Source of the DNA: Nemertoderma westbladi
Lineage: Eukaryota > Animalia > Xenacoelomorpha
Direction of reading: 5' to 3'
DNA: 64,000 nucleotides
NCBI GenBank assembly: GCA_032718475.1
Contig: JAUCBJ010002853.1
Coordinates: 1 to 64,000, forward strand
Shown: positions 15,571 through 34,060 of the stretch, one piece after another
How positions within the stretch are numbered: the stretch's first letter is position 1
Layout: each line of letters starts with the position of its first letter
The notes under the pieces: model-generated
Told to the model about the DNA's origin: nothing
Databases searched by the model: none
The model's input: the letters and a program-made list of their open reading frames with translations, nothing else
Made by a program: the position numbers and the translations under genes

Positions 15571-17358
15571 TCATATACCACAGACTTTAACCGCTACTCC
15601 ACCGTTACTGAATAAGTTGGAACGGTGATTATAATTAACCCCTTCTTCCTTACCCTGTTTTAAGTCTTTTTTTTTACCCCTACCCTTTTGTAGATTTACA
15701 GTCTGGGTAGTGAGTTTACTTGACCCATCTTTGACAGAGTATCCCTTACTCTTGACATTTTTATCGTTGTAAACCAACTTATCACGAACAACAGGAACTC
15801 TAAAGACCACCTCAAATTTGTGTCCTATTTGCTTGATGTTTTTGTCTCTATCTTCCCCATATTCAACAAGAACAACAATCTTTCTAATCAGTCCATCTAA
15901 CCACTCTTTTTGGTTTTCAGTCGACGTTGAAACTTTGGTTTTTAAGTCATCCCCATATCTCTCTAACCAATCCAACCAGATTTTCTCTTCACTCAAATCT
16001 TCAATTTCAAGTTCAGTCTTTTTGAGTTCCTTCTTCAAGGTATCAAGTTCAACAGTAAGGTTCTTAATAATACCTTCTGTAATCTTCTTCTCTCTACGTC
16101 CTTGAACTAAATCTGTTTCCATCGAAATGATGTTTTCGTATGTCTGTTCTTGTCTACGAATAAGTTTTTTACACTTCTCCTCAAGTTTGGTTTCCCTCTC
16201 CTTGATATCTGCATCTTTATCAAATTTCTTACTCAGAACATCGTGCTTAAACTTCTCTTTCAAGATGACAGAATTGGAAACTACGTCTCTAATTCTCTCT
16301 ATTAGATAATCGTCTGCATTATCCATATTCATGGATTTTCGATTAGAACAATTGGTTTCTCTTACTTTCTTCCAATTTCTCTCTCTGGTTACACAAAAGT
16401 AGGACTTGGTATCAAAACTTGAACCGTCTTTTCTTGTACCAACCTTTACCCTTGAACCAATTTTCTCACCACACTCACAGACCATATACTCTCCAAAAAC
16501 GGTGGTGTGCTTCTTATTGTTGTCTTGGGTTTTACGTCTTTTATCCATCTCATTACGAACCTTAGTAAAGGTTGAACGAGATACGATTGAGGGGATGGTG
16601 TATGTAAAGGTTACATCTAGTTCCTTATCGTAGAATTCCTTTTCCCCAATGTAAGACCTGTTCCTTAGAATACTCTCCAGAGTACCTAAGTTCCAGTTCT
16701 TGTCTGATGTGCGTCTTGGGTGAATTCCGTCAGTCTTTCCATCTGTATCCAATGCTTTCTTGATGTCCATTGTGGACTTTCCCTCAAGGACTGAATTGAA
16801 GATAAACAGAACCCATTTACTCTCCAGTTCATCAACAGATAGGACACCATCAATTGACTTATATCCAAACAATACAGTTCCACCGTAATGACGGTTAGAA
16901 ACCCCTTGTCTTAACAAGTACCTCTTACCCTGTTTGGATTTATGACTTCGTTTCTCATTTTCGTATTGTTGCAACTTAGAAACGATATCGTATGTAAGTT
17001 TCTCTTCAAGACTATCAAAATTACAAAGGTTTCCACTTTCACCTTCGTAAAATCGTACATCGTATTTTTCTAAGTAATGCCGTCTGAATAGAACACTATC
17101 GGTTTCATCTCTGAATAAACGACTTCTATCAAACACCCACAGATGTTTGACCAAACCCTTTTCAATATCTTCCTTGATTTCCTCAAGTCGAGGACGAAAT
17201 CCTATTGTCGAACTTTTCGCACCTTCATCCCTTGCACGGAACTTGAGGTTGAGTTTCTTCGCAATCTTCTCTCCATACTCCTGCTGAGTATCCAGAGATT
17301 GACCCTTTGTCTGTTCCTGTGTCGAAACACGAAAATAACAATCAAGAAATTCAGTCAT
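15571..17358 (-). CDS. Large serine recombinase (integrase) of element B, integrated-state form
   Basis: YFRVSTQEQ catalytic Ser motif, DRSRLFR, recombinase domain, CECG..YFC..C zinc ribbon, coiled coil; ORF runs across the att junction. Confidence 0.93.
   Translation of the reverse strand: MTEFLDCYFRVSTQEQTKGQSLDTQQEYGEKIAKKLNLKFRARDEGAKSSTIGFRPRLEEIKEDIEKGLVKHLWVFDRSRLFRDETDSVLFRRHYLEKYDVRFYEGESGNLCNFDSLEEKLTYDIVSKLQQYENEKRSHKSKQGKRYLLRQGVSNRHYGGTVLFGYKSIDGVLSVDELESKWVLFIFNSVLEGKSTMDIKKALDTDGKTDGIHPRRTSDKNWNLGTLESILRNRSYIGEKEFYDKELDVTFTYTIPSIVSRSTFTKVRNEMDKRRKTQDNNKKHTTVFGEYMVCECGEKIGSRVKVGTRKDGSSFDTKSYFCVTRERNWKKVRETNCSNRKSMNMDNADDYLIERIRDVVSNSVILKEKFKHDVLSKKFDKDADIKERETKLEEKCKKLIRRQEQTYENIISMETDLVQGRREKKITEGIIKNLTVELDTLKKELKKTELEIEDLSEEKIWLDWLERYGDDLKTKVSTSTENQKEWLDGLIRKIVVLVEYGEDRDKNIKQIGHKFEVVFRVPVVRDKLVYNDKNVKSKGYSVKDGSSKLTTQTVNLQKGRGKKKDLKQGKEEGVNYNHRSNLFSNGGVAVKVCGI
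15594..15632 (-). other. att junction (element B arm + original glmS 3' end)
   Basis: Minus strand ATAATCACCGTTCCAACTTA-T-TCAGTA-AC-GGTGGAGTAG; the last 18 nt encode SVTVE*. Confidence 0.88.
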
Positions 17359-17362
17359 AAAT

Positions 17363-17423
17363 TAATCACCGTTTATTATACTTTCATTATAATCATTTTG
17401 ATGCATTAGTCAAACGGTGATTA
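17363..17423. promoter_or_regulatory. Inverted repeat TAATCACCGTTT...AAACGGTGATTA upstream of integrase B (copy of att arm; putative autoregulatory operator)
   Basis: Matches the TAATCACCGTT core of the element B att arms. Confidence 0.7.
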
Positions 17424-17528
17424 TTTGTTCTTAAAACAATTTAAGTCGTTGATTTTGCTTAGTTTTTATATTGACATTTTGCCATTTTTTTGGTAATATT
17501 CAATAAGATAAAGAAAGAGGTAATTATT

Positions 17529-18119
17529 ATGAAAGTTGCCATCTACGCAAGAATTTCAACAGACAATCTGGGACAAGATGTAGACCGTCAGTTACACGAG
17601 GTTCGTGCCTTTTGTGAAAGGATGGAATACGAGGTAGTTGATGAATATGTTGATGAAGGATTTGCAAGAACTACGAGAAACAGACCATCACTTGATAAAT
17701 TAATCAAAGATGCGAGACAAAGAAAATTCAAGATGGTGGTTAGTGACGAGTTGAGTAGATTTGCTGGAACACCTGCTCTGCTCCTCAATCTTCTTGAAGA
17801 ACTGAAACTCTGGAATGTGAATCTGGTGTCAGTAAAAGAAGGTATAGACACTTCAACACCTATGGGTGAAATGGTTGCAACGATGTTGTCTGCCATATCA
17901 AAAATGGAACTTTTCAATATCAGTCACCGTGTCAAATCTGGGATTTCAAATGCCAGACGTAAAGGTGACGGAAGTTGGGGAAAGAAATCAAACCTTACCA
18001 ATGAAGTGAAGGAACAAATCCTACAGAAACGAAATGAAGGATGGGGTTTTAGAAAACTAACCAAAGAGTTCAAGGTTTCTAACCAAACACTACGTAAGTT
18101 TTTACCAGAGTTTGCGTAG
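17529..18119 (+). CDS. Small serine recombinase (resolvase/invertase) of element B
   Basis: MKVAIYARIST, DELSRF, SVKEGIDTSTPMGE, C-terminal HTH; AGAGG RBS before ATG 17529. Confidence 0.9.
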   Translation: MKVAIYARISTDNLGQDVDRQLHEVRAFCERMEYEVVDEYVDEGFARTTRNRPSLDKLIKDARQRKFKMVVSDELSRFAGTPALLLNLLEELKLWNVNLVSVKEGIDTSTPMGEMVATMLSAISKMELFNISHRVKSGISNARRKGDGSWGKKSNLTNEVKEQILQKRNEGWGFRKLTKEFKVSNQTLRKFLPEFA

Positions 18120-18183
18120 GGTATCCGCCGATTGCGTATGATTTATCGCACTGTGCCGTAAGTCATATGAAAATCAACAATAT

Positions 18184-18191
18184 TATAAATA
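18184..18191 (+). promoter_or_regulatory. T4-type late promoter consensus TATAAATA (putative)
   Basis: Exact TATAAATA upstream of ORF 18305; a chance match is possible in AT-rich DNA. Confidence 0.35.
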
Positions 18192-18304
18192 TATGAATGA
18201 TAAGGATGAAAAGAATAGGAAACCTTGTTCGTCTTAATCTGTTTTCTAACGATAAGAAAAGGGGATGGAATAACTCCTTATCCATCCCCTTCAAGGAATA
18301 ACTT

Positions 18305-18754
18305 ATGAACATAAACCAAGAACATTCCCAACAAGTATTTATACAGATGAAGGATATTATTCTTTCGTCATGGACTACTGGTGACCCCATCGCAACCTAT
18401 GAAGAACTTGCTAATGAACTCACCCAGAACGGTATCACGAACTACTACGGACAACCCTACACCCACTGGACACTACGTAAGATGATACAACGCATGGATA
18501 AGGTTGATGAGGATTTAGACTTCAGACAAGAACACTATCCAATGATGCTGTATCTCAAGGACAGTAACATTGGACTAAAGACACCAACTCGTCCTGCCAA
18601 ACCTATTAAATCAAGAACTGCAAAGACAGTTGATGTGGATGAGGAACTGGATACCAGAGAGTTACAGGGACTCCATGACAGACATCAGTTCGCATTACCT
18701 AAATGGATGAGGGATAAAATTAAATTTCATCCAAGTGTCCAAAGTGTCCCATAA
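18305..18754 (+). CDS. Hypothetical protein with recombinase-domain-like HTH; homologue of 31396-31755
   Basis: ELANELTQNGITNYYGQPYT..TLRKMI...DLDFRQEH aligns with EIAEALQRIGVRNTVGNPYT..NLRQLV...DDDFRQDH. Confidence 0.65.
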   Translation: MNINQEHSQQVFIQMKDIILSSWTTGDPIATYEELANELTQNGITNYYGQPYTHWTLRKMIQRMDKVDEDLDFRQEHYPMMLYLKDSNIGLKTPTRPAKPIKSRTAKTVDVDEELDTRELQGLHDRHQFALPKWMRDKIKFHPSVQSVP

Positions 18755-18870
18755 ACCTTATAAGTACCTATGTAGAGGTTCAGATAAAGATAAGTCTAAC
18801 TTCTATTCATCCTAAAATAATCAATCATTTGAACCTTGCATCGTAGATGCAATCGTCCGTAGGACGAGAG

Positions 18871-21372
18871 TTAATCAGTAATTGAAGTTTCTGGTTCAAC
18901 ACCTTCACCCCAAACTTTGCTAATCCTATCTTGGATTTTTTGAGTGTAGTTGCTTGCTAATTGTTTGTTGCCGTCTATCAAAGTTCTTTCAGACGCAATT
19001 CTATTGATTATTGATTTCTGAATATCTGTGGTCGGAAGTGGTATTTTCACACCCTTAATGTCTGGATTATTAATAAGTGCCACACCTGCCGACTTTGATA
19101 TTGTTGTTAAATCGAAACCAGACATAAAATTAAACAGGTAGTCTGGTAACAGACGGTCGTTCGTAACTGTCAATGCCATACAATTATTGTCAATGACACA
19201 AGGGATTTTTGTAATTCTTTTCTTGTTTGTTGCTATTGCCGCACCCCTTTTGGGGAAGATGACAGACCCTTGTGGTAAAACATGTTTTTCATTGAATCGT
19301 GATGTGCTTACACAATTATTAGATGTAACAATCTCAACTTGGTTTTTTTCAAGGTTCATATCTGAAACCTTAATACCTGCTAAATCACCGTGCTCATCAA
19401 ATTCTGTTAGAGTGTTGCCATTATTTACACTGACCAACTCACCCAACTCAACCATTTCCCATGAGGGGTCAATGTCGATGGTAGGTTTGTAATTCTCAAC
19501 AACCTGTCTGCACCCATCAATAATGTTCTGATAACCCTCTAACTCATCAACAATCTGTTGTTGAACTTCGATGGGTGGGAGAGGAAAAGAGAAATCACTT
19601 AGGGTAGAAAAGGACAGGTTTGAGATATTCGTTGTGGTCTTTGAATTGTTGATAAAAAACTGCTTTGCTGCTTCACCATTTAGGACTGCATTTAGATACT
19701 TTGGATGAACAAACTCTTGTTTTGCCCTTATGACACCCATAAACGCACCAAAACATGTTTCAGAAGGTGCTGACCCAACAAAGGTGGTTCGTCCTACCAG
19801 TGACAAACTGTTTGCTAATGAAATAAGAATGTCATTGTCGATGAGAAATTTATCGAAGTTCTTGACCAGATTCTTTTCTATCAAGTAACAGTGTTCTTGA
19901 ACAATTCCATTCGATTGTGCTGCTTTTGTCGTAACAACGTTACAAGATGTATCAGTTTTCTCTTGAAGTTGGTCTCTTTTTGAAAAAGTGACACCCCGCA
20001 CAAACTCAGAGACTGATGATAATTTGACGGTCTCGAAATTGGATTTACTTTCAATCTGCTCAAGATAAAGGGATGATGAAAACGAGTTCTCTTTATGATT
20101 ACTTAAAGTCTCTTTTGATACGGTTTGAATGTCGGTTTCGATTCCTCTCAGAAACCTAGTTATGTCATCCTTTATTCTGGGGAGGTCATCTTTTGAGATT
20201 GCTGTCCTCTGTGCACCAAGACTGAACCCATCATTTTCAACTTTTGCAAAGAAAATACTGTCTGACTTTTGATTGAGTTCTTTATCCAAAACAAGAATTG
20301 AAGTTTTTACACCAGAATAAGGTTGAAAAACCCCTGCTGGAAGAGAAACAACCCCCACCAAACAATCCTCAACTAGTTTCTTTCTGAGAGTCTTATATGC
20401 AGTGCCTGTTTGGAAAATGATGCCCTCTGGAACAACGATGCCTGCACGACCAGTGGGTTTGAGATGTTCCATGATGTAATCAACGAACAGAACCTCTGCC
20501 CTTGTTGATTGCACCCCAAATCGTGAATGAGGTTGTATTCCACCTGTTGGAGAGAAAAACGGTGGATTCGCAAGAATGACATCATAGTATTCGTTCCACC
20601 TATCCTCAGATGACAGGGTGTCATATTCATGGATTTGAGGACTCGCAAATTGGTGTAGATACATATTCACCAGTGAGATTCGTGTCATATCTGGTGAAAT
20701 GTCATACCCAACGAGATTGTCACCAACTTGTTTACGGTCTGATGCATTGAGTTTGTCACCCAACTTCTTAACAGTGTTCTGAGACAGAATGTGCTTATAG
20801 GATGAAATCAAGAAACCTGCTGTGCCACATGCTGGGTCAAGGATGGTTTCATTCATTTGTGGGTTAACTATCTCAACAATGAAGTCGATGATGTGACGAG
20901 GAGTTCTAAACTGCCCTGCATCACCTTGTGCCCCCATGAATGACAGAAGATACTCAAACGCATCGCCTAATTTTTCTGAATGTGAATAGTGGAACTCGTT
21001 AATTTCCTTCAAAAACATATTGAGAGTTGAAGGGTCTTTGAATGGAAGAAATGAGTTTTTGAAAATCTCTCTAAACAGGGATGGTGCAGTGGGATTATTA
21101 TACATCCCCTCAATCGCATCACTATAAAGTTGCACCTTATCTGCACCCCCTAATTTTGTATCAAAGAGGTTCTTCCAAGAGTATTTTTCATAGTCACCAA
21201 CAAAGAAGGATGCGACACCACCCATCTCGACTGCTTCTTCGTCCATGTCATACATGAACTTGTAAATTAGTCCTGTAGTGATTTGCTCAACTTGACTCTG
21301 TGGACTTGGAATTTTGCCAACAAGAATATTTCTTAAATCATCTATGCGTTTCTTGGTGACACTATCTAACAT
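18871..21372 (-). CDS. Type I restriction-modification methyltransferase fused to specificity subunit (HsdM-HsdS)
   Basis: GQFRTPRHI, DPACGTAGF and ANPPF (N6 MTase), followed by two TRDs with PLPPIEVQQQIV and IPLPTTDIQKSII conserved repeats. Confidence 0.9.
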   Translation of the reverse strand: MLDSVTKKRIDDLRNILVGKIPSPQSQVEQITTGLIYKFMYDMDEEAVEMGGVASFFVGDYEKYSWKNLFDTKLGGADKVQLYSDAIEGMYNNPTAPSLFREIFKNSFLPFKDPSTLNMFLKEINEFHYSHSEKLGDAFEYLLSFMGAQGDAGQFRTPRHIIDFIVEIVNPQMNETILDPACGTAGFLISSYKHILSQNTVKKLGDKLNASDRKQVGDNLVGYDISPDMTRISLVNMYLHQFASPQIHEYDTLSSEDRWNEYYDVILANPPFFSPTGGIQPHSRFGVQSTRAEVLFVDYIMEHLKPTGRAGIVVPEGIIFQTGTAYKTLRKKLVEDCLVGVVSLPAGVFQPYSGVKTSILVLDKELNQKSDSIFFAKVENDGFSLGAQRTAISKDDLPRIKDDITRFLRGIETDIQTVSKETLSNHKENSFSSSLYLEQIESKSNFETVKLSSVSEFVRGVTFSKRDQLQEKTDTSCNVVTTKAAQSNGIVQEHCYLIEKNLVKNFDKFLIDNDILISLANSLSLVGRTTFVGSAPSETCFGAFMGVIRAKQEFVHPKYLNAVLNGEAAKQFFINNSKTTTNISNLSFSTLSDFSFPLPPIEVQQQIVDELEGYQNIIDGCRQVVENYKPTIDIDPSWEMVELGELVSVNNGNTLTEFDEHGDLAGIKVSDMNLEKNQVEIVTSNNCVSTSRFNEKHVLPQGSVIFPKRGAAIATNKKRITKIPCVIDNNCMALTVTNDRLLPDYLFNFMSGFDLTTISKSAGVALINNPDIKGVKIPLPTTDIQKSIINRIASERTLIDGNKQLASNYTQKIQDRISKVWGEGVEPETSITD

Positions 21373-23830
21373 TCTCTAATCTCTCCAAGTTCACATTGTC
21401 TTTTACATATAAGGGAATGCTCTGTTTTAACTCTTTTGGAAGTTTTCTGAACGCATCACCAGATGGATGAACACCTAATTCTGCGTATCGTTTGCTATCC
21501 ACGATATCTCTAAAATCATCATCGACTGCATATGCCTCAAATACTTCTCTTGCACTTCCATAGATTGCGTCATTTGGTTTGAGTACTTTGTCGAGTTTAT
21601 CAAACTCTTCATCCAGACACTCTCTTTGGGAAGGAATGTGTTCAATATGTCCAAAGATATGGAGAAGAAGTTCTGAAACGGTTAACTTTCTATCAAGACC
21701 CAACGATTTTCTGATTTTTTCAATTGTATAAAACTCTTGTGGTTTATCTAAAACATTGTCGTTCAGATAAGTCTCTGCTTCATCAAAATTCTGTTGAGAA
21801 ACTAAACCTTTAATGATTTCGTCCTCTGACACCTTCTTCTTGAAAGACCTGTAAAGATTTCTATCAATCTTCATACCTTGGTCAGAGAGGAGTATTTCCT
21901 TCAACTCTGCCAGAGGGTCTGGTGCAGTGCTGACCACCTCATCAATGTCTGGAGGGTTTATTGGAGGGTTTATTGGTGGTTCAGAAGGTTTTGAAGGAAG
22001 TTTTAGAACCTTATCGTAATCAAAATCTTTCTCAAAATATTCATAGTTTCCAAAGAAATCAAACAGAAGAAACTGTTCCTTTTGAGGTTCGACATGGTCT
22101 GGGATTTCTGATTTTGTAATCCATGATTGTGAGAAATCACATTTGCGAGTTCCACGACCTTTCATCTGAATAAATTCACTTGGTGAGTAGATAGGACGCA
22201 TCATGCAAATATTCAGAATATCCGTGCAGTCGTAACCAGTTGTCATCATTCCCACTGTCACACAAATACGTGTCTTCGATGTTCTGTAATGAAGGTTAGT
22301 TTTAGACTGTCCATTTAGAGAATTATTTCTGAAATCAATTGTCATTCGTTGCGAGTCTTGAACACTTGAAGTCACTTGGACTGCAAAGTCAGAACTGTAT
22401 TGTTTTGGATAAATTCTGTCTGCAAGTACATTTAGTATTTGAGTGACTTTTGCTGCGTGACTTTGCGAAACACAGAACACCAATGTTTTCCCCATCTCAC
22501 CTGTGTAAGGGTCTTGCATTGCGTGTTTTAGAAAAGTCTCACAAAAAATAGTATTGGTATTTTCTGAAAAGAACTTCTTTTCAAAATCCTTTTGAGTAAA
22601 TGTCTCCTCAAAGTCATTTCCTTCATCATCAACACCTTGAAATATATACCCCTGTTCAGAAAGAAGTTCGGTAGTGATTTCAGTTCGTGCATCAATGACT
22701 TTAGGATTAATGAGATAACCGTCCTTAACTCCATCTTCTAAGGAATATCGGAATGTTGGTTCCCCACTATCACACCCAAAGGTGGTGTAGGTGTCCAACA
22801 TCATTCGTTTCTCTAACTGTCTTGGGTCACTGCCTGCAATATTCTCAACATCTACTGATTTGAGATAGTCTTTAGGAGTTGCAGTGAGTCCTAACTTAAA
22901 TCCAATAAAATATTCAAAAACCTTTCGACTTCTTGCACCCAAAGAACGATGTGCTTCGTCCGAGATAACTAAGTCAAAGTGGTCTGGACGAAATACCTTT
23001 CGGTATTTGTTTCGACTGATAAATGACTGAACAGTAGATATGACAATCTCTGCCTTCGTCCAATCTGATTGATTTTCTTTCCAGACAACTGTCCTAAAGT
23101 CATTTTTGAGGACTTCATCGAACTCTTTCTGTGCCTGAGATTCCAATTCAAGACGGTCTACAAGAAAGAGAACTCTCTTTACTTTGTATAGACGGAGAAA
23201 CATTTTAATGATTGCTGATGAGGTAAGAGTTTTTCCTGTTCCTGTCGCCATCTCCAACAAGAACCTATCTTTGCCTTCTGCAATGCCACTTTGAACTGCT
23301 TTTACTGCCTTCAACTGGTAATCACGAAGAAGACGGAGTTTATTGTTTCTTAAAAACTCGTCTCTTTTTCTGTCATCAAGATAATCTGGATTTTGCTCAA
23401 ATTTAGGAAGTTGAGTTTGTGCAATATAGTCAACGTCAATTTCTTCGACTTCTTGTCGAGGTGGATTGAAGTTAATCTTTCTCAGTTCCAACTGTTCTTG
23501 TGATGGGAAAGTATCAACAATAGTCGGACTGCCTTGTTCAATATCCCAAAAATAATGAGAGACACCATTTGAAAGGATAACAAAACGACAATTCAGAGAT
23601 TCTGCATAACCTCGTGCTTGTTCCTTTCCTACCAATGGAGAAACCAGTTCTTTCTTTGCTTCAATGATGCATAAAGGGAAGTCAGAACTATCTTTAAGAA
23701 CGTAATCTGCAAAACCTGCCTGGTTCTGCATTTCCGTATCAACATTTACAACACCATCATCACCAGAGAGAACCCAGTCAGATTCTCTTAGTAATTTATC
23801 TATAATGATTCTTGCGTTTGCTTCTGACAT
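21362..23830 (-). CDS. hsdR: Type I restriction enzyme R subunit
   Basis: ADYVL..IEAK..QARGYA nuclease motif, MATGTGKT, DEAH, LTATP, TGYD, QMKGRGTR. Confidence 0.92.
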   Translation of the reverse strand: MSEANARIIIDKLLRESDWVLSGDDGVVNVDTEMQNQAGFADYVLKDSSDFPLCIIEAKKELVSPLVGKEQARGYAESLNCRFVILSNGVSHYFWDIEQGSPTIVDTFPSQEQLELRKINFNPPRQEVEEIDVDYIAQTQLPKFEQNPDYLDDRKRDEFLRNNKLRLLRDYQLKAVKAVQSGIAEGKDRFLLEMATGTGKTLTSSAIIKMFLRLYKVKRVLFLVDRLELESQAQKEFDEVLKNDFRTVVWKENQSDWTKAEIVISTVQSFISRNKYRKVFRPDHFDLVISDEAHRSLGARSRKVFEYFIGFKLGLTATPKDYLKSVDVENIAGSDPRQLEKRMMLDTYTTFGCDSGEPTFRYSLEDGVKDGYLINPKVIDARTEITTELLSEQGYIFQGVDDEGNDFEETFTQKDFEKKFFSENTNTIFCETFLKHAMQDPYTGEMGKTLVFCVSQSHAAKVTQILNVLADRIYPKQYSSDFAVQVTSSVQDSQRMTIDFRNNSLNGQSKTNLHYRTSKTRICVTVGMMTTGYDCTDILNICMMRPIYSPSEFIQMKGRGTRKCDFSQSWITKSEIPDHVEPQKEQFLLFDFFGNYEYFEKDFDYDKVLKLPSKPSEPPINPPINPPDIDEVVSTAPDPLAELKEILLSDQGMKIDRNLYRSFKKKVSEDEIIKGLVSQQNFDEAETYLNDNVLDKPQEFYTIEKIRKSLGLDRKLTVSELLLHIFGHIEHIPSQRECLDEEFDKLDKVLKPNDAIYGSAREVFEAYAVDDDFRDIVDSKRYAELGVHPSGDAFRKLPKELKQSIPLYVKDNVNLERLENVR

Positions 23831-23946: not shown

Positions 23947-23972
23947 CTTCTGAATTAAGTAAGGAAATACAT

Positions 23973-24373: not shown

Positions 24374-24401
24374 GTTTTACCCACTAAAACTTCCAAAATA
24401 G

Positions 24402-24527
24402 GGTGTTGTTATTACCCTTCATTATCACTGACATTTGTTTTTCTATAAGTTATTGATTTTACTACGTTTTGTATTTTATGATTTTTACTGAGGATGCGTA
24501 GTCTAATACAGATGTAATAACAACACC
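24402..24527. repeat. 14-bp perfect inverted repeat GGTGTTGTTATTAC/GTAATAACAACACC flanking an AT-rich spacer with an IHF-like site
   Basis: Arms at 24402-24415 and 24514-24527; TAAGTTATTGATT at about 24446. Confidence 0.75.
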
Positions 24528-24636
24528 TCCCCCCTAAAACTGAACAGTAAGGTACCCATCAATCTATAGTTATACTTATGTGTAGATAGACAAATACCAC
24601 TCCCCCCAAATCGTAGTGAGAGTTGATTGCACTTCC

Positions 24637-25002: not shown

Positions 25003-25030
25003 GTAACTGATTACTTCGGATTGGACAATT
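24976..25030 (-). other. Hybrid att junction between elements A and B
   Basis: Minus strand AATTGTCCAATCCGAA-GTAA-TCAGTT-AC-TGTCGAG-TAAGTCGGAACGGTGATTAT: A arm, SVTVE* copy, B arm. Confidence 0.9.
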
Positions 25031-26755
25031 TGAGTCCGCCCCTGAATTCATTTGTTTTTTTTTAGGTTTCCCGACTGACGCAGAAATGTCCAGTACCCCA
25101 CTCTTCTTTTTATTTCGTCCTGTTTTGATTTCATAACCAGAGGACTTCTCTGAGGTGTCTTTGTATTCCAACTTGTCACCGACAATCTTCATTTTGAACT
25201 GGACGGTGATGTTGTGACCATACTGGATTTGTTTACCATCCCTATCCTCTTCAAACTCAGGTGAGACAATAACCTTAGTAATCAAACCCTCTAACCATTC
25301 TCTGGTCTTCTTAGGCGTTGAAGTTTTCCTATTAATGAAATCACCGTACTGACTTAACCAATCCAACCATTGTTTTCTCTCGTCCAAATCTTCAATCTCT
25401 TGGACAAACCTTTGATATTCTCTTTCATAGTGTTCTTTCTCGTCCTCTAACCCTTTTAGGATGAGGTCTACAACCTTTGGGTCTTTTCTCCCCTGTATCC
25501 TTTCAATCTCAATCTTTGCGATGTTCTGGACTGTATTCTCCAAAGATTTGTGATTTCTGCGAACCTTGTCCTCTAATGATTTCTTCTGAATTTTTATCTC
25601 TTCATCGTCTGCAATTTTCGTTGCCAGGACTTCTGACTTAAATTGTTCTTTGAGTGATACGGAATCCTTAACAACTGACTTCACAAGTTTAACCACCGCC
25701 TTGTCGGTGAGACTTCTCTCACAAGACTTTTGATTGTTGCAATCATCGAGGTCTTCACCTCTCCACTTGCGAGACTTACTCACACAAAAATAAGTTTCGG
25801 TGGTCTTACCCGATGGTCTCTTCTTGGATGTGGAACTCATCCTCAAACCACAACAGCACTCCAACAATCCATCCAATAGACCGAAATGTTTCTTGTTATT
25901 GTCTGAGATACGTTGGTTCTGTTGCAGTCTCTTCTTAACCTTGCGGTAAAGCGATACTGAGATGATTTGTGGGATTTGATAAACGTATTCTTTTTCACTG
26001 TCCTTATCGAACCACCGTTTCAATCCAGTGTAGGATTCATTACCCAGCATTTTTTGGATTGTTCCAACGTTCCATAAACCAGTTCTGGTTCGTCTGGGTG
26101 GAATTCCGTTGGAGTCGAGTTGGTTCTTTATTTCGATAGTCTGCATTCCATCTGCATACTCACGAAACATCCATTTAACCCACTTAGACTCTTCCTTATC
26201 AATCACCCATCTTTTGTTTTCATTCCTGTATCCAAAGGTCGGAGTACCACCAAGAAATATTGGAACATCATCAGAGTGATTTTCCAATAGGTGTCTCTTT
26301 CCTCTAATACTGCGCCGTCTGATTTTTCTACTCTCGTTCTCATCCATGATTTGTTGGAATGCATAGAGGAGATTCACTTCCTCTTTCTTTCCAAACTTCC
26401 ATGGTTCAGAACTATCACCGACCCACATCTGGCAACCGTATTTCTCCAAATACAGTGATTCAAATGTGATGTGTTCAAGTCTGGTACGGAATAGTCTACT
26501 GGTTTCTACAATCCAGATATTTCGGACTTCTCCATCCTCAATGCCAGATTTGATTTCATCTAATTCATCTCTGACATTTTGACCCTTGGTGTTTTTAAGG
26601 GTTGAACTCTTTGCACCCTCATCGTGTGATCTAAGGATAAGTCCTAAACGCTCTGCGAGTTGTTCAGAAATCTTTCGCTGAGACTCCAATGAATGACCTT
26701 CGGTCTTCTGTCCTCTTGTGGAAACTCGATAATATGCGTCTAGGTACTTGTTCAT
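24980..26755 (-). CDS. Large serine recombinase (integrase) of element A, integrated-state form
   Basis: MNKYLDAYYRVST, ETSRLFR, CCCG..YFC..C zinc ribbon; clearly paralogous to 15571-17358. ATG 26755 chosen by alignment with integrase B. Confidence 0.93.
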   Translation of the reverse strand: MNKYLDAYYRVSTRGQKTEGHSLESQRKISEQLAERLGLILRSHDEGAKSSTLKNTKGQNVRDELDEIKSGIEDGEVRNIWIVETSRLFRTRLEHITFESLYLEKYGCQMWVGDSSEPWKFGKKEEVNLLYAFQQIMDENESRKIRRRSIRGKRHLLENHSDDVPIFLGGTPTFGYRNENKRWVIDKEESKWVKWMFREYADGMQTIEIKNQLDSNGIPPRRTRTGLWNVGTIQKMLGNESYTGLKRWFDKDSEKEYVYQIPQIISVSLYRKVKKRLQQNQRISDNNKKHFGLLDGLLECCCGLRMSSTSKKRPSGKTTETYFCVSKSRKWRGEDLDDCNNQKSCERSLTDKAVVKLVKSVVKDSVSLKEQFKSEVLATKIADDEEIKIQKKSLEDKVRRNHKSLENTVQNIAKIEIERIQGRKDPKVVDLILKGLEDEKEHYEREYQRFVQEIEDLDERKQWLDWLSQYGDFINRKTSTPKKTREWLEGLITKVIVSPEFEEDRDGKQIQYGHNITVQFKMKIVGDKLEYKDTSEKSSGYEIKTGRNKKKSGVLDISASVGKPKKKQMNSGADSNCPIRSNQLLSSKSER

Positions 26756-26759
26756 AATT

Positions 26760-26817
26760 TGTCCAATCAATGCATTCAAAGTAACCTATTTTTATCAAAG
26801 AGTAAAATGATTGGACA
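26760..26817. promoter_or_regulatory. Inverted repeat TGTCCAATCA...TGATTGGACA upstream of integrase A (copy of att arm; putative autoregulatory operator)
   Basis: Matches the TGTCCAATC core of the element A att arms. Confidence 0.7.
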
Positions 26818-26893
26818 TTATGATATTTCCTGAGGTGTCTCTATTGCATTTGTAGACTGCAAAATATTTTGAGAATAAAGGGGGGTGGGGCAA

Positions 26894-27283
26894 TTACTTC
26901 TTCACACCACCTTCATTCAGAGTAGATGCAATAAGTTCTAGTTGCACAGTGTTGAGGATGTTGATTGCATCTCTTGCCTTCTCATCGTTGTAACCAAAGT
27001 ATCTCTTAACAACTGATAGATATTTGACGGTCACTGCATCCCTCTTCTTCTTGGATTGTGCAACGTACTTCACGTTTTTAGGTAGGGAATGGAGTAAGAA
27101 CTTATAGTGTAATTCCTTATCCATAACCCTCTGATTTGCAGCATTCAAAATTCCCATTGCAGATGCATCGTCACTGAATAATCCTCTTTGAATTAGGTAA
27201 GGAGAATATGAACTTGGTTTCTCATCGTTCCAGATGTCCTTACCTGTGTTCTTAATCGTTGCGATGTATCTGCTGTAGGTCAT
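26894..27283 (-). CDS. T4-like phage clamp-loader small subunit (gp62-like)
   Basis: YSPYLIQRGL...N......LHYKFLLHSL.K...VKRYFGYNDEKARDAINIL...QLELI...LNEGG follows the gp62 pattern (Y.P..IN.., QY.FL.N.., VK.YYGYS.EKA..AL.IL..GG). Confidence 0.75.
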   Translation of the reverse strand: MTYSRYIATIKNTGKDIWNDEKPSSYSPYLIQRGLFSDDASAMGILNAANQRVMDKELHYKFLLHSLPKNVKYVAQSKKKRDAVTVKYLSVVKRYFGYNDEKARDAINILNTVQLELIASTLNEGGVKK

Positions 27284-27285
27284 TC

Positions 27286-27624
27286 TTATGCTACCTCCTT
27301 CTCAAAATACTCTGGATAAACTTGGTAGAGTTTCTTTGCTTCTCCAAACAAACCATTCAATGACTCAGTTAGAGTGTTACTCAGTTTGTCTTTTGAGTTG
27401 TCCCAACATTCATAACTATTAGTTCCGTTTTCCAAAGTTTTTGAGTAGTCGCAGACTTTATCCAAAACCTCGTTGATTTGTTTGTTAGTCAAACCCGAAT
27501 CCTTCATCGCTGTGAGGATGATATTGAACACCTGTTTGTGATGGTGATCTGCAACAAGTGTTTCCCAAGAAAATCCAAAAATGTCTTGGACGTTCAGTTC
27601 TTTTTTAGTCGTTTTGTTTGTCAT
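27286..27624 (-). CDS. Hypothetical protein
   Basis: 112-aa ORF with AAAGGAG RBS, directly upstream of the gp62-like gene. Confidence 0.65.
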   Translation of the reverse strand: MTNKTTKKELNVQDIFGFSWETLVADHHHKQVFNIILTAMKDSGLTNKQINEVLDKVCDYSKTLENGTNSYECWDNSKDKLSNTLTESLNGLFGEAKKLYQVYPEYFEKEVA

Positions 27625-27744
27625 TTTAGTTCTCCTTTATGACGTTTTTTAATCCAGAAAACAGAACCATTTCTCTTTTCTCATTACTTTTATATACTAC
27701 CCGAAATACCCCAGAAAGTCAATAAATATCAGACACTTAGTGCG

Positions 27745-27800
27745 ACCAATAGACGGTGGTATATACATCATTAGACGCAACCAATAGACGGTGCTATAAT
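27745..27800 (+). promoter_or_regulatory. 14-bp direct repeat ACCAATAGACGGTG x2 followed by TATAAT
   Basis: Copies at 27745-27758 and 27780-27793; -10 box at 27795-27800; ATG at 27807. Confidence 0.6.
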
Positions 27801-27806
27801 GGTGTT

Positions 27807-28397
27807 ATGAAAACTAGTAGATGGAACAGATACGATAAAAAGAGTGGGTTATGGATTCCATCGTCCAAACCCATCTACACATTCTGGTTCAAGTATCTCC
27901 AACACGCAGAGAAGGACACCACCAGAACGGTTGATTGGACAAAATATGATGGATGGGGTGGTGCAGACACAATCCTAAACACCAAGTTTGATGCTTGGTG
28001 GAAAACACATTGGAAAGACTTGTTTGGTTATGAACTGGATAAGACAGAACCAAAGTACCCTCTATCAACCATCAAACCTCAACTGGACGGTATCAAGTAC
28101 TCTCTACTGGTATATGAACTTAGGAAAGAGAACCCCTCCTTAGGGTATTGGGAACTCGCAAAAGAGATTGCCGCCAAAGAATATCCAAGACGCAGAGATA
28201 AAGGGAAACGTGACACTAACTTCAAACCCGAACAATGGAGTTTCAATATCGCCCGCCCTGCCGTGGGAAGAGAACTTTGGAGAAAAGACAAAAGAGAGTT
28301 TGGAGAACAGAAACGAGTGTTGAGTTCTCGCATGGGTAGATATCAAAAAAGTGCAGAGAAACACTTGGACAACGTGTGTCGGGGTGTATTTCCGTGA
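27807..28397 (+). CDS. Hypothetical basic, Trp-rich protein (possible DNA-binding regulator)
   Basis: 196-aa ORF, YTFWFKYLQ...FDAWWKTHWKDLF; ATG 6 nt after TATAAT. Confidence 0.7.
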   Translation: MKTSRWNRYDKKSGLWIPSSKPIYTFWFKYLQHAEKDTTRTVDWTKYDGWGGADTILNTKFDAWWKTHWKDLFGYELDKTEPKYPLSTIKPQLDGIKYSLLVYELRKENPSLGYWELAKEIAAKEYPRRRDKGKRDTNFKPEQWSFNIARPAVGRELWRKDKREFGEQKRVLSSRMGRYQKSAEKHLDNVCRGVFP

Positions 28398-28570
28398 GGG
28401 TTAGAACCAAAGACTGTTATGTCTGTAATGACGCAAAGGAAGTCCTGTATCGGTGCCGATACCATGAGTTGAAGGATTGGGTGTTTCTCTGTGGAAAGTG
28501 TCTGACGGACGTTAAATCACGATTTGAGGACACCTATCAATATGGTGGAACCTGGAAGAGTAAGAAGTGA
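28394..28570 (+). CDS. Small zinc-finger-like protein
   Basis: GTGA overlap with upstream stop; CYVC...LYRCR...W.FLCGKC...YQYGGTWK. Confidence 0.6.
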   Translation: MRVRTKDCYVCNDAKEVLYRCRYHELKDWVFLCGKCLTDVKSRFEDTYQYGGTWKSKK

Positions 28571-28639
28571 GTTTTTGAATAATAATGATAAAATGTAGAA
28601 TTGAAGATTTTTGCGATGTGAGCGGGCAGGAGTAAGAAA

Positions 28640-28837
28640 ATGGAAAACCGTTTAATGAGAGCATTAGAGAGTGTACTTTTTATTGCAATATTTTTGGGTA
28701 TCTATTGGGTTATAGGTTTTTTCTGTAAATCAACATTTGATTTCGAGATACGTAGCAACAGAGGTTATACAATCGTTGTATTTGCGGCAATTGCGTTCAA
28801 AATAGTTTTGACTAAGATGTTGTTGGGAGAATTTTGA
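28640..28837 (+). CDS. Small membrane protein
   Basis: AGGAG RBS; two hydrophobic segments. Confidence 0.5.
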   Translation: MENRLMRALESVLFIAIFLGIYWVIGFFCKSTFDFEIRSNRGYTIVVFAAIAFKIVLTKMLLGEF

Positions 28838-29166
28838 TGGATTTTGCAAAGAAATTTCTATTGGGGGATTATTCCTTAACCAAAACCTTTTGGATTATTT
28901 ACTTCATTCCAACCATTTCATACACAATAATCCGTACATTATTAGTAGAGTTCGATGAAACTTACAGTAGTCCTTGGATCATCGTCATCTTATTTATGGT
29001 GTTCAAAATTGTATGTTATGTTGCGATTTGGAATAGTTCAGCAAAATATACTGGTAAGAAAAGATGGTTTTATTTGGTAAGAGTTTATCTAGCATTTGAG
29101 GTTGTGGCATTTTTTGTACGGTTAATAAATCTCATACCTCTTTTACTTGTCGTACTATCTAAATAA
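28837..29166 (+). CDS. Membrane protein (about 3 TM)
   Basis: GDYSLTKTFWI...AIWNSSAKYTGKKRW, hydrophobic helices. Confidence 0.6.
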   Translation: MDFAKKFLLGDYSLTKTFWIIYFIPTISYTIIRTLLVEFDETYSSPWIIVILFMVFKIVCYVAIWNSSAKYTGKKRWFYLVRVYLAFEVVAFFVRLINLIPLLLVVLSK

Positions 29167-29277
29167 TATAGTTCTGTATTCTGCAAAGCAACGACTGCGA
29201 GTTTACACTGGTAACATTGTCAGTGTGAAAAAAAGTAATTAAGAGTGCGTCCTTTGGATGGTCTTTGCGAATCATCC

Positions 29278-29394
29278 TGTCTCAAAAGACTGTACCCTGT
29301 GAGGACATTTCTATGAGACACTATTACTGTCTCAATAGGGTTTGTTATTGACTTATGAGGCACTTTCCTGTAAGGTCTAGAAGTAAATGAGACA
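29278..29394. promoter_or_regulatory. res site (resolvase binding subsites)
   Basis: TGTCTCA at 29278 and 29328; TGAGACA at 29314 and 29388; TGAGGCA at 29356; directly upstream of a resolvase gene. Confidence 0.75.
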
Positions 29395-29409
29395 GTACAG
29401 GAGAAAATA

Positions 29410-29952
29410 TTGAAATACGGATATGCAAGAGTTTCTACTACCGACCAAGACCTCACAATCCAGATAGACGCACTCAAATCTGTGGGATGTGAAACCATTC
29501 GACAGGAGAAGGTGTCTGGAACATCTATCCAAGATCGAGATGAACTAAACACTCTTTTAGAATTTATGCGTGAAGGTGATGAACTCGTTGTCACAAGGGT
29601 GGATCGTCTCGCACGTTCTATTCGTGACCTGCAAAACATCGTCTATGACCTCAACAAAAAGGGTGTAACGATATCTGCAACAGAACAACCTATTGATACC
29701 AAAACAAGTGCTGGGAAGTGTTTCCTAGATATGTTGGGTGTCTTTGGTGAGTTTGAGACAAACCTTCGCAAAGAACGTCAGATGGAAGGTATCGCAAAGG
29801 CAAAAGAGAAAGGTGTCTATAAGGGAAGAAAACCCTCTGTGGACGTTCAGAAGGTCAAGGAACTGCGTGATAGTGGAATGGGTGCATCTGCAATCGCAAA
29901 GGAACTGGGGATAGGTCGTGCATCTGTCTATCGTGCATTGGAGTGTCATTGA
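29410..29952 (+). CDS. Serine resolvase (Tn3/Pin-like) of element A
   Basis: KYGYARVST.DQ, EKVSG, VTRVDRLARS, YKGRKP, HTH ASAIAKELGIGRASVYR. Confidence 0.93.
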   Translation: MKYGYARVSTTDQDLTIQIDALKSVGCETIRQEKVSGTSIQDRDELNTLLEFMREGDELVVTRVDRLARSIRDLQNIVYDLNKKGVTISATEQPIDTKTSAGKCFLDMLGVFGEFETNLRKERQMEGIAKAKEKGVYKGRKPSVDVQKVKELRDSGMGASAIAKELGIGRASVYRALECH

Positions 29953-30125
29953 TATATCAAACACTAGAAGAAGCGATAATCGCCGCAGAATGCATGATAG
30001 AATCTTTTGATGATGATTATTACGACCTCATCAAGAACCCCACCAGAGATTGGGTCAAGATTACCGCAGTAGAAGGTTGGGGTTTTGAACTCTTTGGTCA
30101 TGGCGATGTGGTCAAAATAATTTGA
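29943..30125 (+). CDS. Small acidic hypothetical protein
   Basis: 60-aa ORF overlapping resolvase end. Confidence 0.4.
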   Translation: MSLIYQTLEEAIIAAECMIESFDDDYYDLIKNPTRDWVKITAVEGWGFELFGHGDVVKII

Positions 30126-30202
30126 CTTGTCGATGCATAACAGTATCGGAAGAAGTCAGCACACCATTTTCTTAAACCTTTTTTTAGATTTTCCGCAGAC
30201 AT

Positions 30203-30240
30203 AAAAAAACGCACTTAGAGGGAGTTCTAAGTGCGTTTTT
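30203..30240. terminator. Bidirectional intrinsic terminator
   Basis: AAAAAACGCACTTAGA-GGGAGT-TCTAAGTGCGTTTTT between convergent genes. Confidence 0.75.
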
Positions 30241-30267
30241 GCATAACGAGTTAAGGAATTCACTCTG

Positions 30268-30498
30268 TCAAACTGGGCGTCCTGATGTTCTGCGGATGAA
30301 ATCCTTGTATTCATCGGGATAATCACCGCCCCTCTTACGCACTTCTGCATACGCATCAGTCATGTTAGGGATTTGGGAGTGGGTCGTGGTGGTTCGTTTA
30401 TCAAGTGTTGCGTACTCTCTCGCACGAATCTCTTGTTCTTTTCGTTGTTGTTCTCTGTCCAATTTATCTTGGTAAAGAACGGCATCTGTTATTTTCAT
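30268..30498 (-). CDS. Hypothetical protein
   Basis: 76-aa ORF, ATGA-coupled to upstream ORF. Confidence 0.6.
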   Translation of the reverse strand: MKITDAVLYQDKLDREQQRKEQEIRAREYATLDKRTTTTHSQIPNMTDAYAEVRKRGGDYPDEYKDFIRRTSGRPV

Positions 30499-30698
30499 CG
30501 CATCCCTCTCAAATTTCTATCCATCTGAGCGTTCTGTTCTGCGAGCAGTAATGTCTGTTGAGAACTTTCACTAAACATCTTCACCAGCACCTTTCGTGCA
30601 GATACTTCATCCTTTGCACGAATGTATTCGTTTCCAAGTGTTGCAACCTTCTTTCCAGATGCATCTATGCGTTGTTTGAGTTGGTTTATGTCGGACAT
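30495..30698 (-). CDS. Small coiled-coil hypothetical protein, homologue of 23973-24173
   Basis: High visible identity to the element B copy. Confidence 0.75.
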   Translation of the reverse strand: MSDINQLKQRIDASGKKVATLGNEYIRAKDEVSARKVLVKMFSESSQQTLLLAEQNAQMDRNLRGMR

Positions 30699-30699
30699 A

Positions 30700-30885
30700 T
30701 CAGACACCAACTGGATAGAATTTTGGTTCTAAACCGTGTTTTTGCATATCATCGAGAAGGCATCTTTGAACTGAGGTGCGGATATAATCACTCTCATTCA
30801 CCCGAAATGTGTCACAAATTTCTTGCAAGGATTCCTTTACTGGTTCTGAAAACCGCACACTTCTTTGATATTCAAACTTCTTCAT
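30700..30885 (-). CDS. Ribbon-helix-helix-like small regulator
   Basis: YQRSVRFS...KESL..IC....NESDYIR pattern; AAAGGAG RBS; CATAAATA at 30924-30931 upstream. Confidence 0.55.
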   Translation of the reverse strand: MKKFEYQRSVRFSEPVKESLQEICDTFRVNESDYIRTSVQRCLLDDMQKHGLEPKFYPVGV

Positions 30886-31046
30886 AAAAATAACTCCTTT
30901 GGTTTGTGTTCCGTTGATGCATCTATTTATGCGTCAGAACATCCGCACATTAGGGTTTCAAAGGAGTTCCATGGGTGTTGAGAAGGGTTAGAGGTATCAT
31001 CCTACTGCGGCAGCATAAAACCTCTTGGTCGTCTCTGGTCGCAGTT

Positions 31047-31086
31047 AAAAAAATAGGCGTAGAGCAGTCGGACTCTACACCTATTT
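31047..31086 (-). terminator. Intrinsic terminator
   Basis: Hairpin AAATAGG.GTAGAG...CTCTAC.CCTATTT with T-run on the minus strand. Confidence 0.65.
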
Positions 31087-31121
31087 CATCATTATTTAGT
31101 TACTCATGGAGAAAAGAGTTA

Positions 31122-31394
31122 TCACCAGAACCAATCCCTTAGTTCTTCATCACTTGGTTCAATTGAAGAATTTGATGCATCTAAGTATTCTTGAAAATCC
31201 AGATCATTTCTAAACTTTTGAAGGTATCTATCAAACTCACGTTGTGGTGATAAATCACCACAAGTTTCACCAGTTCTATTGATGTGTTTTATTGCAGTAG
31301 TGAATCCATCAATGAAGTTACTAATTTCTAAATCAGCAATCCAAATATCTGATTCATCATATCTGAACCCCTGCATAGCAGATTTATAATCCAT
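31122..31394 (-). CDS. Acidic hypothetical protein
   Basis: 90-aa ORF starting 1 nt after the upstream stop. Confidence 0.55.
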   Translation of the reverse strand: MDYKSAMQGFRYDESDIWIADLEISNFIDGFTTAIKHINRTGETCGDLSPQREFDRYLQKFRNDLDFQEYLDASNSSIEPSDEELRDWFW

Positions 31395-31395
31395 G

Positions 31396-31755
31396 TTAGA
31401 CTTGCATTAGGGTTGGGTTGAAAAAATTATGATATTTCTCAACATCAACAGAACTAATAAATGGTTCATCAGGACTTCTTGCAGTCACTTCCTCTTCGTC
31501 ATGTATCACCCTTCTGGACTGTGGTAGATAGATGTCGATGTGATCCTGTCGAAAATCATCATCTTCCGATAATTGATTCCACTTATGAACCAACTGTCTC
31601 AGGTTGTTTGGTGTGTATGGATTTCCAACTGTATTGCGAACTCCAATGCGTTGGAGTGCCTCTGCAATCTCGTTGATGGTTGTGCATCCAAAGAAAAGGA
31701 CGCATTTGCACATATCGTGAAATACGTCTTGATTGTGTTTTTTGTTCTTATTCAT
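31396..31755 (-). CDS. Hypothetical protein with recombinase-domain-like HTH; homologue of 18305-18754
   Basis: AGGGAG RBS before ATG 31755; shared motif with the element B gene. Confidence 0.65.
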   Translation of the reverse strand: MNKNKKHNQDVFHDMCKCVLFFGCTTINEIAEALQRIGVRNTVGNPYTPNNLRQLVHKWNQLSEDDDFRQDHIDIYLPQSRRVIHDEEEVTARSPDEPFISSVDVEKYHNFFNPTLMQV

Positions 31756-31867
31756 ATTAAATACTCCCTTTATGAATTCGGGAATATTTAGACATCCTGT
31801 AACCCCGATGAGGTTCAACAGGGGTATCGAATTAAAAGAAAGTCAGTTCTGATTAAGTGACCATTGG

Positions 31868-32226
31868 TCATTTAGTGAATTCGATCCACATCTGTCCACG
31901 TTGCAATGGATACTTCTTGTTTCTTAGTTTGATTCTCTCTTCTCTTTCTCTGTACCGCTTCAAAACACTGTAAACGTATTGAGTACCCCACTGACTTCCA
32001 CCGTGGGTCGTTATCTTCCTGTCATTTAGGAAATAGGCAATCCGCCTGTATCCAATACCTCTCTGATGAAGAGAATTTATCAGTCGATATATTTGGAATT
32101 GGTTTTCTGAATATCTGGTTGGGTTCTGTTCTGGTTGAAGATAATTGAACCTTTTGGACACCTCAAAAAAGAGGAAATTTGAGTACTCATTCGCCCTCGT
32201 AATTGTCCAATCCGAACTATTCCACG
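31868..32226 (-). CDS. Detached C-terminal segment of integrase A (recombinase/HTH DNA-binding domain)
   Basis: Open frame from the att core: WNSSDWTITRANEYSNFLFFEVSKRF...GIGYRRIAYFLNDRKITTHGGSQWGTQYVYSVLKRY; in frame with integrase A after circularisation. Confidence 0.8.
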
Positions 32227-32234
32227 GTCACTGA
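32201..32234 (-). other. att junction at glmS 3' end (glmS + element A arm)
   Basis: Minus strand TCAGTG-AC-CGTGGAATAG-TTCGGATTGGACAATT. Confidence 0.9.
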
Positions 32235-34049: not shown

Positions 34050-34060
34050 CAAAAAAACCG

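Follow-up and report, generated by a model that had tools for sequence, protein, structure and literature searches.

Contig JAUCBJ010002853.1 of the Nemertoderma westbladi assembly GCA_032718475.1 carries the essential gene glmS with two tandem integrative elements, A and B, at its 3′ end. Each element encodes a large serine recombinase (LSR) integrase, and the gene for this integrase is split by its own attachment site, attP. The stretch analysed (the window) is 64,000 nt long; glmS and both elements lie on its minus strand, as do the features written below with two dots between their coordinates, unless the plus strand is given. glmS is intact (611 aa; 32217..34052; Pfam SIS and GATase), with its last codons, from the AC of the Thr codon onward, presumably contributed by element A. 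Behind it lie element A (25005..32228; 7,224 bp, 39.8% GC), delimited by reconstruction of its attachment (att) sites, by its joined ends in three sequencing runs and by a viral-collection relative, L007, and element B (15606..25004; 9,399 bp, 38.0% GC), delimited by att reconstruction and by the relatives L004, L033, L048 and L052.

Three junctions define two elements

An earlier reading of this DNA from its letters alone (the sequence-only reading) had pointed to three synonymous 18-mers encoding SVTVE* (Ser-Val-Thr-Val-Glu-stop). Each occurs once and on the minus strand, where that reading had placed it, at 32234-32217 (J1), 25010-24993 (J2) and 15611-15594 (J3), with AC cores at 32228-32227, 25004-25003 and 15605-15604, respectively. 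Across the six frames of the window, SVTVE* is found at J1, J2 and J3 only; 1,000 base shuffles gave a mean of 0.001 copies and a maximum of 1, ruling out a chance origin of the three. All three copies thus stand, but glmS itself is represented only by that at 32217-32234; in J2 and J3 the SV half is attP sequence that never coded for GlmS.

The junctions resolve into halves of two attP sites. J1 (32217..32234) is the attL of A, joining the left half of glmS to the P′ side of A; J2 (24993..25010) joins the P side of A to the P′ side of B; and J3 (15594..15611) is the attR of B, joining the P side of B to what we infer to be the original end of glmS. Repeat searches and attP rebuilding located the arms themselves. 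The 16-bp P′ arm of A (32201..32216) is a perfect inverted partner of its P arm (25015..25030), and the P′ arm of B (24976..24995) pairs with its P arm (15613..15632). Rebuilt from the left half of J2 and the right half of J1, attP of A is symmetric about the AC of the Thr codon in a 10+2+10 arrangement with 16-bp perfect arms; rebuilt from the left half of J3 and the right half of J2, attP of B is symmetric about the same dinucleotide in a 7+2+7 arrangement, both as the sequence-only reading had described. By comparison, the rebuilt empty site has no symmetry beyond the core (9/35 positions). Over positions 11–26, cognate arms match at 16/16 (A) and 15/16 (B) positions and crossed A/B arms at 9 and 8: the arms are element-specific. 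J3 is followed by neither an arm partner nor an integrase tail of the kind described below.

The absence of tns genes, also claimed from sequence alone, was borne out: the Tns families were unmatched among the 23 open reading frames (ORFs) scanned between 13.4 and 37.2 kb. A Tn7-like transposon was rejected on this ground (tnsABCD unmatched) and because the symmetry of the junctions is centred on the Thr codon, inside the gene. The window contains no tRNA or Rfam match. Promoter and terminator scans performed below shuffled expectation and were not used.

Integration splits the integrase gene

In their integrated, short forms, integrase A (24980..26779) has 599 aa from a TTG start, or 591 from the ATG at 26755, and integrase B (15571..17358) has 595 aa. 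Both combine Pfam Resolvase and Recombinase domains and are 37% identical. When the circles are rebuilt, both ORFs run on through attP into the opposite end of the element, lengthening integrase A from 599 to 711 aa (703 from ATG) and integrase B from 595 to 706 aa; the roughly 110 residues added match Pfam Recombinase. The tail of A (31868..32226; about 118 codons, including a helix-turn-helix (HTH) that resembles DNA-binding domain 1 (DBD1) of serine integrases) and the tail of B (24637..25002; about 121 codons) are each in frame with their own integrase only across attP. attP therefore lies inside the integrase gene; integration cuts the tail off, and joining of the element ends reunites the two parts. 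The sequence-only reading had noted that the site codes twice, for the end of glmS and in an integrase frame. This is confirmed and holds family-wide, and both long ORFs read across their own attR; that reading was nonetheless incomplete, having missed the position of attP within the integrase gene. The dual coding is not incidental, as the frame of the integrase runs on past attP to encode a conserved tail of about 110 aa. We regard the element, its target and the split gene, taken together, as highly probable.

Natural sequences contain the joined gene. First, protein P0001 (703 aa) is 99% identical to integrase A and ends in the tail of A; other natural full-length integrases are P0012, P0025, P0036 and P0039, and the fused proteins on record span 694–717 aa. 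The tail is fused to the integrase in P0001/L001/L007/L008. Second, L007, which is the same sequence as L001 from a viral collection, is a contig of 10,388 nt that closes circularly through a terminal repeat of 123 nt; it has an intact attP and a full integrase ORF of 703 aa, and its integrase and tail regions are 96–97% identical to those of A. Third, the joint 32217→24994, diagnostic of joined A, was found in contigs of X11, X13 and X19, that is, in 3/8 runs under three study codes. These runs are labelled viral metagenome (the fraction being taken from record labels), and two of the three were mapped at 85% likeness. The joined form of element A thus occurs in virus-fraction DNA, in X11, X13 and X19 and in the viral-collection contig L001, which is a new observation.

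The tail resembles a further DNA-binding domain

The part of the integrase ahead of the split is that of a complete LSR. Both proteins match the catalytic domain PF00239, with Y8, R10, S12, R87 and R90 invariant in 45 alignment rows, and the DBD1 family PF07508 (E 3e-16 and 7e-10). DBD2 and the coiled coil are represented by invariant C300, C302, C324 and C339 and by modelled helices at 366–459; the Pfam zinc-ribbon model matched neither integrase A nor integrase B. A model of the 703-aa protein (mean predicted local distance difference test score (pLDDT) 78, predicted template modelling score (pTM) 0.36) places canonical domains up to about residue 550, followed by a disordered att linker and three tail helices. 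Foldseek ranked serine integrase complexes first for this model (9dxd_A, E 1.8e-20 over 562 columns). As modelled, the short form retains the catalytic domain, DBD1, the four invariant Cys and the coiled coil.

Modelled alone, the tail (pLDDT 84) forms a three-helix HTH with flanking strands. Compared with DBD1, it gave Z 6.3 against 9dxd (root-mean-square deviation 4.1 over 71 residues) and Z 5.6 against Bxb1 (9iu2). From these models, the tail is likely to be a DNA-binding domain. It is conserved, with nonsynonymous divergence (pN) below synonymous divergence (pS) in 9/9 pairs (A versus L001: pS 0.085, pN 0.007). It has no conserved start of its own: within its first 24 codons an in-frame start is absent in 15/24 tails, and ATG is present in 1.

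A family with one target and two frame classes

To place A and B among their relatives, we searched with an alignment of 28 integrases and obtained at least 85 loci (3 viral, 3 genome and at least 79 metagenome); all counts from this survey are among the matches listed. The loci include at least 70 integrase 3′ ends, of which 4 are too near a contig end, leaving 66 testable. TVE* lies within 260 nt of the integrase end in 63/66, as against 10/1,714 other windows, and glmS sequence is present in 15 loci. Merging near-identical junctions left 53, in which the integrase runs in the sense of glmS in 40 and antisense in 13; at antisense junctions it converges on glmS. What the sequence-only reading had proposed for the window (use of the glmS end by LSR elements, crossover at the AC of the Thr codon, restoration of TVE* and tandem stacking) therefore holds here and family-wide.

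With symmetry defined as at least 19/30 positions matching, 18/53 junctions contain a symmetric attP. A 2-bp core in a dyad attP of about 50 bp, with no long att homology, is common to A, B and these 18 observed sites. Two of the 18 end at a contig edge, and a tail follows in the other 16: it is in frame 0 in 7, in frame −1 in 9 and in frame +1 in 0. The attP sites rebuilt for nine integrated elements with both ends were symmetric in 9/9; their tails are in frame 0 in 3 and in frame −1 in 6.

These frames go together with a slippery sequence before the site. An in-frame X XXY YYZ heptamer precedes it in 50/53 junctions against a background of 102/708, and a run of at least 9 A in 35/53 against 0/708. 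In the window, A9 runs lie at the ends of integrase A (25055..25063, forming an in-frame slippery heptamer) and integrase B (15667..15675); in one antisense clade the heptamer G GGA AAG stands directly before the stop. In the −1 class, no stop interrupts the −1 frame between the heptamer and the end of the tail in 9/9 (in one case as far as the contig end), whereas in class 0 it closes before the core in 7/7. On a 25-row tree of rows of known frame class, the class differs between the supported sisters L010/L021 and L002a/L002b, and antisense elements occupy three places. The two frame classes with their counts and controls, and the two orientations, are new observations. At L006 (9576-11717), an antisense integrase fragment comes after glmS, and beyond it a second integrase points away and ends at an inverted TVE*, possibly through an inversion or a nested insertion.

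The family occurs in Alpha- and Gammaproteobacteria and Bacteroidota. DNA for a B-type integrase is 89% identical in L004, an alphaproteobacterial metagenome-assembled genome (MAG); as the host of the window appears from its gene set to be gammaproteobacterial, a wide host range is suggested. The GlmS of the window is 35–38% identical over its length to that of related loci, and its C-terminal 180 aa reach at most 53% identity among 400 genomes of the class of G002, so the host is probably a deep-branching lineage. Here glmS presumably follows an RNase R-like gene, not glmU.

Elements and remnants in unselected genomes

That glmS 3′ ends elsewhere hold such elements was borne out in genomes sampled without regard to the family. 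Matches to a tail profile were found in 5/400 genomes of the class of G002, 10/401 of the class of G001 and 7/401 of the class of G003 (by their titles, a Gammaproteobacteria, an Alphaproteobacteria and a Spirosomataceae record). With these three centre genomes excluded here and below, 19 of about 1,200 unselected genomes have a tail match, a frequency not previously described: 11 lie directly behind the glmS stop and 5 at a TVE* junction without glmS in the 1.5-kb flank. At least 5/11 tails behind glmS carry stop codons, with no integrase match in the 18 kb around two of them or the 10 kb around a third, which indicates that remnants are common.

Stacking recurs as well. L002 has two complete elements behind glmS, and among the matches listed 6/35 hybrid junctions have the tail of another element behind them. 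A chimeric fusion of integrase A to the tail of B across such a junction was ruled out, because integrase A is blocked from the tail of B even with slippage (the frame opens only at 25047); elsewhere, 0/6 hybrid junctions followed by a tail yield a fusion. At L147 (G350:C4, 11330-15340), four TVE* copies lie behind glmS at spacings of 839, 1,147 and 2,024 nt, with no integrase match in 18 kb, and at L146 (G012:C46, 6762-7657) two copies lie 895 nt apart; both are small cassette arrays. L136 and L143 (G944:C1) are two copies of the 3′ part of glmS about 5 kb apart, each with the same junction and tail.

Site recognition and order of arrival

The codons at the end of glmS constrain the site. In 28 unoccupied glmS ends, they fix the bases GA.T at positions 5, 6 and 8 to either side of the core; the core is shared by 28/28, and the right side is uninformative past position 10. 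The attP left halves retain the GA.T bases although they never coded for GlmS. The 'SV' of J2 and J3 is thus a mark of recognition and not of coding. The site would be usable across phyla because Lys-Ser and Glu-stop codons force a pseudo-dyad that DBD1 could read. In large serine integrases the DBD2 motif lies 4–5 bp nearer to the core in attB than in attP. Aligning attP arms with the glmS half gave a best shift of 4 bp (z 7.7, with 5 bp at z 0; uncorrected for relatedness), and 4 bp is the shift reported for SPbeta (PMC11722253).

New elements would enter next to glmS, because every insertion leaves the half on the glmS side intact and the opposite half is uninformative past the stop. If the glmS half specifies attB, only the glmS-proximal junction is usable and B came first, an order that we consider likely. 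Both orders of arrival yield the same three junctions, so the junctions themselves weigh equally for the alternative, in which A came first and B then inserted into the attR of A. This we think rather unlikely: a profile of the glmS half scores the left half of J2 at −2.4 and J1 at 23.9, G069 has a B-type P′ arm directly behind glmS, and in L004 an intact B-type integrase is proximal and a decayed tail distal.

A proposed integration switch and its rivals

The best overall explanation, which we hold to be very likely, is a family of LSRs that recombine within the Thr codon of glmS, at its AC, rebuild TVE* and split their own gene in doing so. The long form, available only on joined ends, would likely carry out integration, while residence and excision would fall to the short form. 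The slippery heptamer would give the circle both forms, with a default that differs by frame class, and an integrated copy would make short forms only. The long form is favoured as the integrator because it exists only when integration is next and because attB has one informative half. The heptamer probably serves functional slippage. That the tail promotes integration is plausible, at somewhat under an even chance. More tentatively still, these may be self-directing serine integrases, in which the recombination product fixes which protein is made (a third DNA-binding domain on or off), a −1 slip tunes the mixture and no separate factor is needed; this would amount to a one-protein, stackable, landing-pad-free system at glmS.

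Several observations weigh against this explanation. The functional steps (activity, transcript and frameshift) are all inferred, recombination being seen through its products (attP, attL and attR). Joined A could be a head-to-tail concatemer instead of a closed circle, as contigs do not distinguish the two; no joined B was found among contigs of the 8 runs; and neither a circle nor an empty site was found among contigs of the run that is possibly the source of the window. Runs X2–X5, X11, X13 and X19 contain no long pieces of the glmS of this host, and no joint that bypasses both elements was found in them. In the full-length model the tail is unpacked against the rest of the protein (pTM 0.36, linker pLDDT below 50), the match of the tail to DBD1 is of intermediate strength and on a par with those to unrelated HTH proteins (of which a terminase scores best, at Z 6.7), and Foldseek returned nothing under E 0.5 for the tail model. 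The arm-shift analysis, in which relatedness is ignored, has side peaks near z 4. In the surveys, 3/66 integrase ends (L066, L067 and L079) are free of TVE*, 3/53 junctions lack the heptamer, and 3/19 genome matches are short and HTH-only, with no TVE* junction. L066, L067 and L079 possibly form a sister clade with another target.

Of the other explanations, the one that survives best makes the tail a block: RDF-like (that is, like a recombination directionality factor) or autorepressing, it would keep the excised circle free for packaging, and the short form made by slippage would integrate. It gains from engineered fusions of an RDF to the integrase C terminus, which favour excision (PMC12286644, PMC11722253), from the frequency of joined forms in viral-fraction data, from the HTH-like nature of the tail and from slippage, which would yield short forms on every circle. 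We nevertheless consider it unlikely, as the long form would be a minor product in the −1 class and hence a weak block, the tail resembles DBD1 and not a known RDF, and an excision factor made only after excision cannot start excision.

Less probable again is a suicidal integrase, with an inactive short form, trapped integrated copies and exit only with the help of an incoming circle. The remnants described above (at least 5/11 glmS-adjacent tails with stops, in integrase-free surroundings) are as expected of trapped copies, and rescue of this kind is described for archaeal tyrosine integrases (PMC8371274); however, the short form retains every canonical LSR domain, and the −1 class would make it by default even on the circle. 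Finally, it is very improbable that the tail forms a small gene of its own (such as an RDF expressed from the glmS transcript) whose frame relation is a by-product: gene callers do list it as a stand-alone 'recombinase' of 70–170 aa and in sense elements it immediately follows the stop of glmS, but it has no conserved start, its frame behind the heptamer is 0 or −1 in 16/16 observed and 9/9 rebuilt attP sites and never +1, it lies at the end far from glmS in antisense elements, and fused proteins of 694–717 aa are on record.

Relation to known systems

Two known systems act at the ends of core genes: insertion of the staphylococcal cassette chromosome (SCC) rebuilds the last codons of rlmH, and TnsD of Tn7 binds the coding end of glmS. 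The family shares its domains, 2-bp core and dyad attP of about 50 bp with large serine integrases (9dxd, PhiC31, Bxb1 and LI; PMC11722253, PMC12286644). Unlike in those, attP here lies inside the integrase ORF, with a second DBD1-like domain that is reached only across attP, a conserved slippery heptamer, glmS as target and no RDF recognised among the small ORFs. SCC and SCCmec, inserted at rlmH by CcrAB (PMC11470126), are similar in using large serine recombinases, in forming tandem cassettes behind a core gene and excised circles, and in carrying anti-phage cargo, here the type I restriction–modification genes of B; tandems occur in the window, L002 and L004. They differ in targeting rlmH and not glmS and in using a Ccr operon, where each element here has one self-splitting integrase and its own arms, measures 7–10 kb and belongs to a family spread over three bacterial classes.

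The archaeal suicidal integrases of SSV1, pTN3 and pT26-2 likewise have an att site inside the integrase gene, which integration splits (PMC8371274). They are tyrosine enzymes that target tRNA genes, whereas the present enzymes are serine integrases at a protein gene in bacterial loci, and here what the split takes away is no more than an accessory tail, with the canonical domains kept on one piece. The same review restricts self-splitting integrases to the tyrosine enzymes of archaea (PMC8371274). Tn7 also uses the conserved end of glmS at attTn7 across many taxa without inactivating the gene, but TnsABCD transposition inserts downstream, into the terminator (PMC3273789), and the present recombination is conservative and falls in the third-last codon. 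Marine virion-encapsidated integrative mobile elements (VEIMEs) and tycheposons (PMC9618062; bioRxiv 10.1101/2020.12.28.424599) resemble A and B as small integrative elements that occur in virus fractions from the sea, encode serine recombinases in some cases and stack at a single site, where each new arrival displaces the residents inward; tycheposons target tRNAs, mostly with tyrosine integrases, and neither primase nor packaging genes were found in A or B.

Literature searches returned no description of a serine integrase that targets glmS or is split by attP, and the TIGER/Islander catalogues may list the target. None of the main texts of PMC10083194, PMC9618062, bioRxiv 2020.12.28.424599, PMC12884075 and PMC13626063 contains the term 'glmS'. 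In the available LSR supplements of PMC10083194, gene-name terms were unmatched and six TVE* 12-mers, covering part of the codon variants, gave one match, which was judged unrelated because it lies at an attB edge, about 35 nt off centre, behind a different preceding codon. By sequence and structure tests, the family is LSR, and it parallels SCC, archaeal suicidal integrases and Tn7 without belonging to any of them.

Although serine integrases rank among the major tools of genome engineering, their use is restricted by the requirement for an attB installed beforehand and by directionality factors that are not known. Here attB is fixed by the C-terminal codons of GlmS and is left reusable after insertion. 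If the proposed switch is correct, it would offer one-protein, landing-pad-free, stackable integration at the Tn7 safe site, and the glmS end is present in most bacteria. The annotated family proteins are truncated forms, and a mining effort based on cloning of the integrated ORF would leave the tail behind. With 19 of some 1,200 unselected genomes giving a tail match, glmS is a little-noticed island hotspot.

Further genes of the elements and flanks

Each element carries a small serine resolvase on the plus strand (A, 29410..29952, Pfam Resolvase and HTH_7; B, 17490..18119, Pfam). The cargo of B is a type I restriction–modification system, comprising HsdR (21362..23830, the restriction subunit) and HsdMS (18871..21372, a methyltransferase–specificity fusion), both assigned by Pfam. 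The elements also share a small HTH-like ORF (A, 31396..31818, 140 aa; B, 18305..18754, plus strand, 149 aa) with 37% identity over 82 aa (E 2e-14); it is present in 8/85 loci among the matches listed, has a weak likeness to the integrase tail and may be offered, as a lead only, as a candidate regulator or RDF. Large serine integrases need a separate RDF for excision; family scans found no known RDF family among the small ORFs of A and B. A second shared ORF, for which no function was found, has 71 aa in A (30495..30710) and 86 aa in B (23913-24173), with 75% identity.

Of genes for replication or capsid hijacking, the family scans of A and B found only a phage clamp-loader-subunit-like ORF in A (26894..27283; phrog_225, E 1e-19), and most small ORFs match no family. 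This clamp-loader homolog, upstream of integrase A, also occurs in 5 loci among the matches listed, and could hint that the element interferes with or exploits a T4-like helper phage. A 206-nt inverted repeat (75%) is common to A and B (23976-24181 and 30487-30692); as viral-run contigs join the two intervals on opposite strands, this module appears to move between elements.

Outside the elements, an open frame of more than 4,200 codons (3-12602, minus strand) runs off the window start and has calcium-binding RTX repeats near its end (PF00353, E 3.5e-33), with no Pfam match in its first 2,600 residues; from its sequence it looks like a giant secreted RTX-type protein. Between it and element B, the interval 13384-15145 holds a P2 tail-I remnant and a D12 adenine methylase, and in run X1 contig depth over 14500-15145 reaches about 420 versus 24.8, which marks this segment as a likely multicopy host repeat.

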